Below, one piece after another: positions 3,001 through 6,000 of a stretch of DNA of 9,274 bases (position 1 is its first letter; every line of letters begins with the position of its first letter). Position numbers: made by a program. Source of the DNA: a virus (lineage: Duplodnaviria > Heunggongvirae > Uroviricota > Caudoviricetes). The stretch is taken from positions 1 through 9,274 of IMG/VR virus record IMGVR_UViG_2703719355_000015; one strand, given 5' to 3'.

Positions 3001-6000
3001 AGGAGGAGCAGCGAAGGCATACGAAAGCCCTGTTATACGAAATGCCTTGTTACGTCTGGCAAATACGCCAAAAGGTAGCACAGCATATGACAGAGCGATC
3101 AGTACGGTCACACAATCGCTCACCAGAGTCGCACAGGCATCACAAAAAGAAGCTCAATAACTGGCAGCCACGGATGGCTAATTTTTATTCTTTGATCTCG
3201 TCCACAGGGAAAGAAGAGCAATGGCAAGACAGGAAACAGAGAATAGATAACCTACCTCATATGGTGCGCCAAAAAAATTAGCTATTGATACGGGCAAAAA
3301 AGCCGAAGCGATCAGAATTGAAAGGCAAAAAATAAGCCCAGTAACATAGTTTATTAAACTCTTAAATGAGAAACGTTTTGCTTGATTTACGGTCTCAGCG
3401 AGTGATCGCTTAACGATGGATAAAAGCAAATAGATGGCGACAGTAGCTAATGCCCCTTTCCACCAGTCTGGATATAATTTTGCGACAATCAGCCCAAGGA
3501 AAACCATGATGACAGACTGAGTATTCACACCAACCTCCTTAGTTTTGCGCAGGATACCAGATGATACTTTATTGGTGGAGTGGTGTGTGAAAACGTGTCA
3601 ACGACAAACCATCCACAACTTGGACGAATGATTTAGCAAAAAGTGCTATTTTTGGTGTTTGGTGTCATAGAAACGTGAATAGCTTACTTTTCAACATTGC
3701 TTATGTTGTGAGTTCTAACGGTAACAGGGAGTGACTTAAGAAAGTTATACGCAGTAAAGCCAGCGGCAGTTTCCCCTCCCTGACTTGATATATGGATATT
3801 TAATTCAGTTGCGCCTTGAGATAATGCGGTGAGACAGTGGTTCTGAAGTTGCCCAACAGTGGCAGTGTTAACGGGGCATAAGAAATGAATTGTGTGCAGC
3901 ATTATTTATCATCCTTGCCATAAATCTTTTTAAGTGTCTCAAACACAACAGCCTTGAACTGCTCTGCCTGCTGATCAGCCAAGCGTTCAGCTTCGTCGCG
4001 ATAGCCAGTCACAGGCGATGGTTTTGATAGAGCATCTTGGACGATTTGTAACAACTCGGAGTTCATTGATCTCCCATTCGCCTCCGCCCTGAATTTTAAT
4101 TTCTCCCTTACTTCCAAAGGCATACGGAAGTTAAAGTGCGGATCGTCTCTAGCCATGCCATCACTCCAAGTTAGTATCTCTAACTTTCGTCTTTATTGTT
4201 GCTATACATGCATTTCAACTTCTCAACATCATGTTCAAGATCTATCAATCGTGATGCTATAGTTGCAAGGTCTAGTGCTTGAATGTGTTTATTTTTTTCG
4301 GTCCATGCTTCAAGTGCCGCGACCATCTCAGCATTTAATGAACGAGACTTAGCCTCAGCCAGTTCAATAAGACGTTCCTTTATCTCTACAGGAAGCCTCA
4401 GATTCACTTGAGGGTTTTTGTACTTACGATCAGACATCGGCACATCCTGAATAACTTTTTACCACAGGATATGTAGGTATCTATTGACTATCAATGCGTA
4501 CCTAAATACTATGTATGCGTACCACATACAGCGGAGGATGCAATGAAGGTAAAAACACTGCGTATGCCAGAGAAGTTAGAAAAAATCCTTGAAGAGAAAG
4601 CAAAGGAAGAGTGTCGATCGTTTAGCGCAGAAGTAATTAAACGGGTGCTGGACAGCTTGAAGAGAGAGGGGGTGATGGTATGAGTAAAGAATGTTGTTTC
4701 TGCGGCATTAGCGAATCAGACGCTGATCAAACATACATTTACTCTAAAGAAACAGGTCGGATGCTGTGTAGTGACTGCGTGTTGGACATCATAAGATACA
4801 AGCATCTTGGATGTTCTGCCAGCATTAGCAATATAGGTGAAGTATACGAAGGGAAAGATATAACTGATAGAGCAGAAAGTTGAAGCCCCAACTGCGGGAA
4901 CAGTCAGGGCTTCGGTATCGTAAAACCACGCATAGGAATTAACGACATGACGAGTGTAGCAATTGCAGAACATACAATCAACGTTCCATTCCACGGAACA
5001 AATCTCTTTTTGGTCAGCATTAACAATGAACCTTACGTTCCTATGAAACCCGTTGTAGAAGGTATGGGTATGGTTTGGGCTGCTCAATTTGTTAAATTAA
5101 AACAGAGATTTGTCAAAGGTATTTCGGAAATCGAAATACCTTCTGCTGGCGGTAAACAGTTAATGATATGCCTTGCCTTTCGTAAGTTTGCGGCTTGGCT
5201 TTCAAGCATTCAGCCAAACAAAGTCCGCCCTGAAATCCGCGACAAGGTAATCCAGTATCAGGAAGAGTGTGACGATGTGCTCTACGAGTACTGGACTAAA
5301 GGTCATGTAGTTAACCCACGCAAAGCTAAAAAGGCGTTGCCGGGTAAAATTACCACTGAACAGCAGGAAGCCATTAAACAACTCGTCATGAGTCGCGGTC
5401 AGTCTCTGCCAAAAGAAAAACAGGCTAAGGCGATGATCACCATGTGGTCGTCACTGAAATCCCATTTTGGATGTTCGTACAAAGAAATCAGTGAGGAGCA
5501 GTTTACCGAAGCACTATCACTTGCAGCTCGAGTTCCACTTGAAGGTGAGTTCATTGGCAAGTCGGAACATAATGAGATGAGTTGTTTTGATTGGAGGATG
5601 AATGTTCATAACCTGAACTCGGCGTGCATTCATCTTGATGCCATGTACAGAATATGGAGAGACGAAATGGAACCCGCTTTGCGATTGCTTGGCTCTCCGG
5701 TTGCGACCAGATTTTGCGGAAGAATTGCAGATTGCTATTCCGTAACTGCAAGCGTTAAGAAAAGTCTGGAGAATGCCGCAGGGCTGAAAGGCTTACAACC
5801 ATTTTAACTACCTGCACGAAAAGTGCAGGTCAATCATCAACGCAACGACCCAGCTTCGGCTGGGTTTTTTTATGCCCAAAATTCACCGTAGCCACGCTGC
5901 GGCGATTCCTTGCATCTGGAGCAAATTAAATGACAGACATTACAGCTAATGTGATTGTATCGATGCCTTCGCAACTCTTCACTATGGCGCGTTCTTTTAA

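Follow-up and report, generated by a model that had tools for sequence, protein, structure and literature searches.

A predicted P22-type sar antisense RNA opposite the ant leader in a CUS-3-type Escherichia coli prophage region

Introduction

Phage P22 makes a short antisense RNA, sar, that blocks the ribosome-binding site (RBS) of the antirepressor gene ant and prevents antirepressor synthesis from both Pant and late-operon transcripts (PMC7968456, PMC2629481, PMC12111858). The RNA has been seen by RNA sequencing (RNA-seq) in P22 infections (PMC13397905), and the original work (Liao et al. 1987; Wu et al. 1987; Schaefer and McClure 1997) is taken here as it is cited in PMC2629481 and PMC7968456. 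Here, we examine a 9,274-nucleotide (nt) stretch of viral DNA (IMG/VR record IMGVR_UViG_2703719355_000015, positions 1 to 9,274; the window), which represents the immI ("ant moron") region of a P22-like (Lederbergvirus-type, CUS-3-type) E. coli prophage. An earlier note on this DNA had proposed a sar-like antisense RNA overlapping the start of ant. By sequence, the stretch in question is an ordinary full-length copy of the P22 sar gene, a member of a known RNA family. We consider it very likely that the interval encodes a homologue of P22 sar that serves as a cis-antisense regulator of ant.

Results

A full-length sar family member lies opposite the ant leader

A scan of the whole window with Rfam 15 returned a single match, sar RNA (RF00262), at 4945-4878 on the minus strand. 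The match, at E 3.7e-17, scores 84.6 bits where the gathering score is 43, and it covers model positions 1-68 of 68, so that it is not truncated. The earlier note's reading is thus borne out for interval and strand, at full length and some 40 bits over the gathering score. RF00262 was also found at the orthologous position in all 12 related loci that were fetched, among them P22 (97.8 bits) and epsilon34 (95.6 bits), both of which carry annotations for sar together with its promoter and terminator. In the P22 annotation, sar occupies 15021-15090 and the ant ATG begins at 15091, which places the start of sar one base before the ATG. The elements of the predicted sar unit in the window, together with its target, are the following.

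4877-4946, minus strand: predicted sar antisense RNA of about 69-70 nt, with its 5' end at G4946 and its 3' end in the AACUU tail after hairpin II
4917-4946, minus strand: sar hairpin I, stem GUCGU.AA / UU.ACGAU, with the anti-Shine-Dalgarno UUCCU in its loop
4882-4913, minus strand: sar hairpin II, the predicted terminator, 14 bp including three G.U pairs, a 4-nt loop UUCC, then AACUUU
4953-4958, minus strand: predicted sar promoter (Psar) -10 TACACT, 4/6, at ATG+6..+11 (ant codons 3-4)
4959-4961, minus strand: extended -10 TGn (TGC), adjoining the -10 hexamer on its upstream side
4975-4959, minus strand: Psar 17-nt spacer
4976-4981, minus strand: Psar -35 TTGATT, 4/6 against TTGACA, at ATG+29..+34
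4934-4937, plus strand: ant Shine-Dalgarno (SD) AGGA, which precedes the ATG at 4947 by 9 nt and can pair with UCCU of the sar loop
4947-5807, plus strand: ant, the antirepressor gene and predicted target of sar, 286 amino acids (aa), from the list of open reading frames (ORFs), Pfam P22_AR_N, E 5.7e-40

The predicted RNA spans the SD (4934-4937) and stops short of the ant AUG (4947-4949). Complementarity to both SD and start codon had been expected from the earlier note; the first part stands and the second does not, since the 5' end at G4946 lies one base from the AUG. Folding of the predicted transcript, which the note had suggested as a check, gives both sar hairpins: the 68-nt RNA has a minimum free energy of -28.3 kcal/mol (z -4.75), and the minimum-free-energy and centroid structures coincide. 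The RNA thus has the two-hairpin build of sar, in which the loop of the 5' hairpin holds the anti-SD and the 3' hairpin is the terminator. The surroundings are those of an immI region as well, with a P22_AR_N-type ant, an Arc-family ORF upstream, and two divergent Mnt/Arc-family ORFs. The predicted promoter lies inside ant and opposed to it, with its start just upstream of the AUG.

The predicted promoter keeps the register of P22 Psar

The minus-strand TTGATT and TACACT that had been noticed in the first ant codons, 17 nt apart, are present at 4981-4976 and 4958-4953, and the promoter as a whole falls within ant codons 3-12. Annotated P22 Psar spans ant ATG+6..+34, and the hexamers of the window occupy the identical register; the predicted +1, G4946, lies 7 nt below the -10, the same distance as in P22. 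This register is common to 14 loci with five different Ant N-termini, and the tetranucleotide TTGC, which contributes the TGn, stands directly 5' of the -10 hexamer in each of the 14. The hexamers themselves differ between the two phages: P22 has TATACT (5/6) and GTGTTA (3/6), against TACACT and TTGATT (4/6 each) in the window. The TACACT allele is also found in E. coli TW14425, and the ant start that carries it (ATGACGAGTG) is seen in seven of the loci that share the invariant hairpin described below.

A short hairpin, GTTCC-ATTCCAC-GGAAC, at 4982-5000, within ant codons 13-18, came up as a terminator-like candidate on each strand. It adjoins the Psar -35 on its upstream side and is probably fortuitous, since its stem is broken in CUS-3.

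Hairpin II is invariant and hairpin I covaries

The stem-loop expected at 4882-4913, ahead of ant, is found exactly there, with 14 bp and a 4-nt loop. Together with its AACUUU tail it is the annotated sar terminator of P22 and that of epsilon34, bar one loop base. The minus-strand fold of the surrounding region (4917-4878) reaches -23.4 kcal/mol (z -6.3; none of 200 shuffles as good), while the plus-strand fold reaches -18.0 kcal/mol (z -2.9); the minus strand is the more stable because three G.U pairs turn into C.A mismatches on the plus strand. Hairpin I shows the same bias (-6.4 kcal/mol on the minus strand versus -2.2 on the plus strand), and the bias of the two hairpins together speaks independently for a minus-strand RNA with a function. 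Because the plus-strand fold of 4870-4990 is not significant (z -1.2), we rejected a riboswitch or attenuator on that strand. Hairpin II is unchanged in more than 100 loci recovered by a pattern search of IMG/VR and, being invariant, gives no covariation signal.

Hairpin I differs in sequence from its P22 allele, and its stem is kept through double compensatory changes in about 10 sequence types. Its stems read UCGU/ACGA in the window, UCAA/UUGA in Kapi1, and GUUGGU/ACUGAC in P22, with seven further types. The pairs are U-A, C-G, G-C, and U-A in the window; U-A, C-G, A-U, and A-U in the Kapi1 type; and G-C, U-A, U-G, G-U, G-C, and U-A in P22. Among 29 unique 5' domains (about 10 clearly distinct types), nearly all form a hairpin whose first base immediately precedes the AUG, as do 11 of 11 representative types. 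An anti-SD (UUCCU, UCUCC, or UACCU) lies in the loop or upper stem across types, and comparison of folding energies with shuffles for the 11 representatives yields a Fisher combined p of 3e-7. We judged this covariation from per-sequence folds and end-anchored pair tables. An alignment of 13 sar sequences with MAFFT, analyzed with RNAalifold, recovered hairpin II only, with no covariation and with the 5' domain out of structural register; the 5' domain was again out of register when 13 allele types were aligned with MAFFT in turn.

Weighing the sar reading

If the interval works as in P22, a sigma-70 promoter in ant codons 3-12 (TTGATT, TGC, TACACT) would fire leftwards, and transcription would start at G4946 and stop after the 14-bp hairpin at 4913-4882, giving an RNA of about 69 nt with two hairpins. 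Hairpin I would display the anti-SD UUCCU in its loop, and sar would pair with the perfectly complementary ant mRNA leader (4878-4946) and hide its RBS. Transcripts crossing the region, whether from Pant or from late-operon read-through, would then leave ant untranslated. That sar is made in this phage and represses ant we infer solely from the work on P22.

Several observations weigh against this account. Psar, at 8/12, was not listed by the consensus promoter and terminator scan of the window, for which the promoter cut-off was 9/12, and sites of 8/12 quality occur at about 5.9 per kb in the window, so that the match taken alone is at chance density. The -10 TACACT is weaker than the TATACT of P22 and CUS-3, and conservation of AGT(A/G)TAGCA could partly mirror the conserved Ant N-terminus (M-x-S-I/V-A). 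Hairpin II has no long U tract and was likewise not listed by the terminator scan. The closing-stem statistic for the 11 hairpin I types is biased, because the 3' limits were picked after folding. Lastly, evidence for the transcript itself comes from P22 only (PMC13397905; Liao 1987 as cited in PMC2629481). Since the consensus scan listed neither Psar nor hairpin II, we relied on homology instead, and Psar is made credible by its sharing the P22 register and the conserved TGn extended -10.

The interval could also be a decayed, silent sar, in which Psar with its TACACT no longer fires appreciably and the hairpin persists only as a structure in the leader of the arc-ant mRNA. The T-to-C change in the -10 relative to P22 and CUS-3 and the subthreshold score of Psar would fit such decay, as would the near-identical prophage of E. 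coli TW14425, whose ant has been destroyed by an IS66 element, an indication that such cassettes do decay. However, the -10 has kept its invariant A2 and T6, the TGn is likewise retained, the -35 of the window is better than that of P22 (4/6 versus 3/6), the ant start bearing TACACT recurs in seven invariant-hairpin loci, ant in the window is intact, with its P22_AR_N domain present, and hairpin I can still fold fully. We regard silence as quite unlikely.

The TW14425 prophage (L004, 5418-8792) is 99.5% identical to the window over 4530-4960. Its IS66-family element splits ant, and its arc and sar are intact.

A different concern is raised by the block that surrounds the terminator. Across 109 IMG/VR loci, a stretch of about 41 nt (4876-4916) is constant and both its flanks are mosaic. 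Its main role, and the reason for its maintenance, might be that of a recombination "boundary sequence," or of a 3'-end or processing hairpin of an mRNA carrying arc and the zinc-ribbon ORF described below, and not that of a part of an antisense RNA. The block is 100% identical among phages whose flanks (arc alleles, inserted ORFs, ant alleles) are unrelated, and the CUS-3 GenBank record (CP000711; locus L001) labels 2557-3038 only as "bsq2; boundary sequence." A full-length sar, which Rfam scores at 84.6 bits, shares that CUS-3 stretch with an Arc-family ORF and a zinc-ribbon ORF. A boundary or mRNA-processing role would leave unexplained the in-register promoter, the covarying hairpin I, and the G.U pairs that favor the minus-strand fold, and the plus strand has no U tract for a terminator. 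A boundary role would moreover be compatible with sar function and so is not an alternative to it; as a replacement for sar we give it very little credence. Chance pairing of promoter-like hexamers with a hairpin, to which the density of 8/12 sites might point, is in effect refuted by the Rfam E value of 3.7e-17, the 12 of 12 orthologous loci, and the hairpin z of -6.3, and deserves almost no weight.

The sar reading, which we prefer, brings no new biology in the RNA itself, as the biology of sar is already known.

A variable slot between arc and the sar terminator

Upstream of the terminator, the window differs from P22 in carrying a small additional ORF next to arc.

4543-4683, plus strand: gene for an arc-like repressor of 46 aa, which matches Pfam Arc (PF03869) with 33.8 bits (cut-off 20.4; E 3e-8)
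4680-4883, plus strand: Cys4 zinc-ribbon ORF, 67 aa, from the ORF list, match to phrog_7150, E 3e-50

The ATG of the zinc-ribbon ORF overlaps the arc stop codon (ATGA), and its own TGA stop (4881-4883) falls within the base of the stem of the sar terminator. The earlier note had this gene filling the intercistronic space between arc and ant. In fact, positions 4884-4946 preserve the canonical 63-nt spacer complementary to sar, and the ORF has been inserted upstream of it, between arc and the spacer. The pairing of sar with the 3' end of the gene that the note had envisaged does have a basis in an overlap, and was overstated: the overlap comprises 6 nt (4878-4883), one codon and the TGA stop. 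In Kapi1 and PhiR12, by their annotated coordinates, it is Arc itself that ends at the equivalent position.

The 67-aa ORF is a putative gene, with evidence on both sides. On the negative side, it gave no Pfam match, a search of 5.8 billion proteins returned near-identical copies only, and PGAP does not call it in related E. coli genomes. About 300 E. coli genomes match it at 95-99% identity. Among the matches listed, most are of O157:H7 type, and each of these spans 205 nt against the 204-nt query; in an O157:H7 copy the ORF is frameshifted by an additional T at about codon 6. A single-sequence AlphaFold model was uninformative (predicted local distance difference test score [pLDDT] 56), and a single-sequence search of the PDB gave weak, Cys-driven RING matches only.

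In favor of a real gene are the match to phrog_7150 and the existence of relatives: diverged Cys4 ORFs of 63, 60, and 74 aa occupy the same slot in other phages, and each overlaps its arc stop codon. With the ORF of the window they make up a small family.

Window, 4680-4883, plus strand: 67-aa Cys4 ORF
L037, 8675-8866, plus strand: 63-aa Cys4 ORF
L062, 419-601, minus strand: 60-aa Cys4 ORF
L053, 6744-6968, minus strand: 74-aa Cys4 ORF
L066, 8171-8395, plus strand: 74-aa Cys4 ORF

The 63-aa protein is 37% identical to that of the window and retains all four Cys, and the 60-aa protein passes the Pfam zf-C4_ClpX threshold (43 versus 27 bits). A profile built from four Cys4 proteins matches the N-terminal zinc-binding domain of ClpX in the PDB (E 1.8e-8), and a profile of the window-type and 63-aa proteins alone ranks ClpX first, weakly (E 0.013). 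At least the 67-, 63-, and 74-aa ORFs end at a TGA inside GTTGAAGCCCC. A literature search on the ClpX zinc finger plus antirepressor found nothing, nor did searches on RF00262 and on CUS-3 boundary sequences.

Across the 109 loci, the slot upstream of the sar terminator holds either Arc itself or one of at least eight extra ORFs. Four of these are the diverged Cys4 types, and the others, unrelated to them, are orf73 of Emek/611R6, an 89-aa membrane protein (EC.P3), a 57-aa ORF, and an 80-aa ORF. The arc-sar junction resembles a site of recombination or a slot for moron insertion. Whether it is a dedicated slot, in which an arc-coupled protein resembling the ClpX zinc finger constitutes a possible fourth, hitherto undescribed immI component beside a conventional sar, is a speculation that we think unlikely to be correct. 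If it were, the Cys4 proteins could modulate how ClpXP turns over Ant, Arc, or repressors of the C2 type, and the fate of the Cys4 ORF mRNA could hinge on cleavage of the sar:ant duplex just past the stop codon.

One Logan contig encodes a predicted Arc-zinc-ribbon fusion of 112 aa (P0001), in which ...LKRGGDG runs into MSKECCFCG.... The fusion fits a 1-nt indel at the ATGA overlap and could be either a sequencing error or a natural fusion.

The remainder of the window

Across 4400-4996, the closest sequenced phage is the E. coli K1 phage CUS-3, with 97.7% identity, and a near-identical window-type region occurs in about 100 complete E. coli genomes. The entire window is a mosaic, of which no intact copy turned up in the phage and E. 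coli collections searched. Beyond the genes already listed, it contains the following.

153-3160, plus strand: DNA-ejection genes, their names taken from the annotation of related genomes
3902-4156 and 4180-4443, minus strand: two Mnt/Arc-family genes in tandem, divergent from arc
4484-4512, plus strand: candidate Pant, TTGACT-17-TACTAT, 9/12 in the promoter scan, which would drive arc, the zinc-ribbon ORF, and ant
Tailspike-sized ORF: 598 aa, where a tailspike is annotated in relatives
Acyltransferase ORF: last in the gene order, after the tailspike-sized ORF

The candidate Pant overlaps a divergent minus-strand site (4494-4466), the layout of annotated P22 Pant and Pmnt. Two repeats enclose these sites: an imperfect inverted repeat of 18 nt (4470-4487 / 4491-4508) and a direct repeat of 21 nt (4477-4497 / 4498-4518). 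We regard the repeats and divergent sites of 4466-4518 as candidate Pant and Pmnt promoters with Arc/Mnt operators. Counting these candidates, the window holds, in its sequence, every element for the P22 circuit.

The gene at 3902-4156 additionally has the Mnt C-terminal domain (PF11423), and P22 has one mnt only. Beside it, a 72-aa ORF (3684-3902, minus strand) shows weak similarity to ClpP protease (PF00574, E 9e-4, under the cut-off), and related prophages annotate an "ATP-dependent Clp protease proteolytic subunit" in the matching region. The ORF is probably a truncated ClpP-like remnant, which is curious beside the nearby ClpX-like zinc finger.

In E. coli O157:H7 86-24 (NZ_CP017251; L013, 1991-3646), a cassette of mnt, arc, a frameshifted zinc-ribbon ORF, sar, and ant lies in the tail-gene cluster of a lambdoid prophage, with minor tail protein L on one side, a C40 peptidase on the other, and nleL close by. 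Its presence in a lambdoid prophage shows that the immI module moves between podovirus-type and siphovirus-type prophages.

Discussion

The significance of this locus is mainly a matter of annotation: CUS-3-type immI regions carry the complete P22-style set of arc, sar, and ant. According to a comparative study from 2008, arc is apparently missing from the CUS-3 ant moron, which may be under a different control (PMC2629481); we find both sar and an Arc-family ORF in the CUS-3-type region, which argues against that remark. PGAP labels the window-type arc "Arc family DNA-binding protein" in E. coli genomes, and GenBank and PGAP records of CUS-3-type regions annotate neither sar nor the small zinc-ribbon ORF. 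These points are annotation corrections and not new biology. A modest added value lies in the invariant terminator hairpin between swappable modules and in the recurrent small genes that adjoin it.

Compared with P22, the window shares an immI locus with an RNA antisense to the ant leader, the length of that RNA, its two hairpins, and the promoter register in ant codons 3-12. The two differ in hairpin I and the SD region, where the first 32 nt from the 5' end are about 50% identical and the window stem contains a U.U mismatch, and in the gene upstream of the terminator, which is the 67-aa zinc-ribbon ORF in the window and arc in P22. The likeness to CUS-3 (CP000711) and to UTI89/NU14-type prophages is closer still: their 68-nt sar is identical to that of the window, with the same arc and zinc-ribbon ORF upstream. 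CUS-3 differs in its stronger promoter (TATACT/TTGATA) and in its ant allele, which diverges from about 4950 onward.

Among other small regulators, the c4 antisense RNA of phages P1 and P7, reportedly described by Citron and Schuster in 1990, resembles sar as a small phage antisense RNA that blocks an RBS to prevent antirepressor (ant) synthesis. As generally understood, c4 is unrelated to sar in sequence and structure, is processed from its target's own transcript, and acts on the RBS of the upstream icd through translational coupling. IS10 RNA-OUT and lambda OOP are likewise short cis-antisense RNAs from convergent promoters; RNA-OUT occludes the RBS of its target, and OOP works by way of RNase III on the 3' end of cII. 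Both belong to different genes, have different structures, and bear no sequence relationship to the RNA of the window, for which the Rfam scan gave sar alone.

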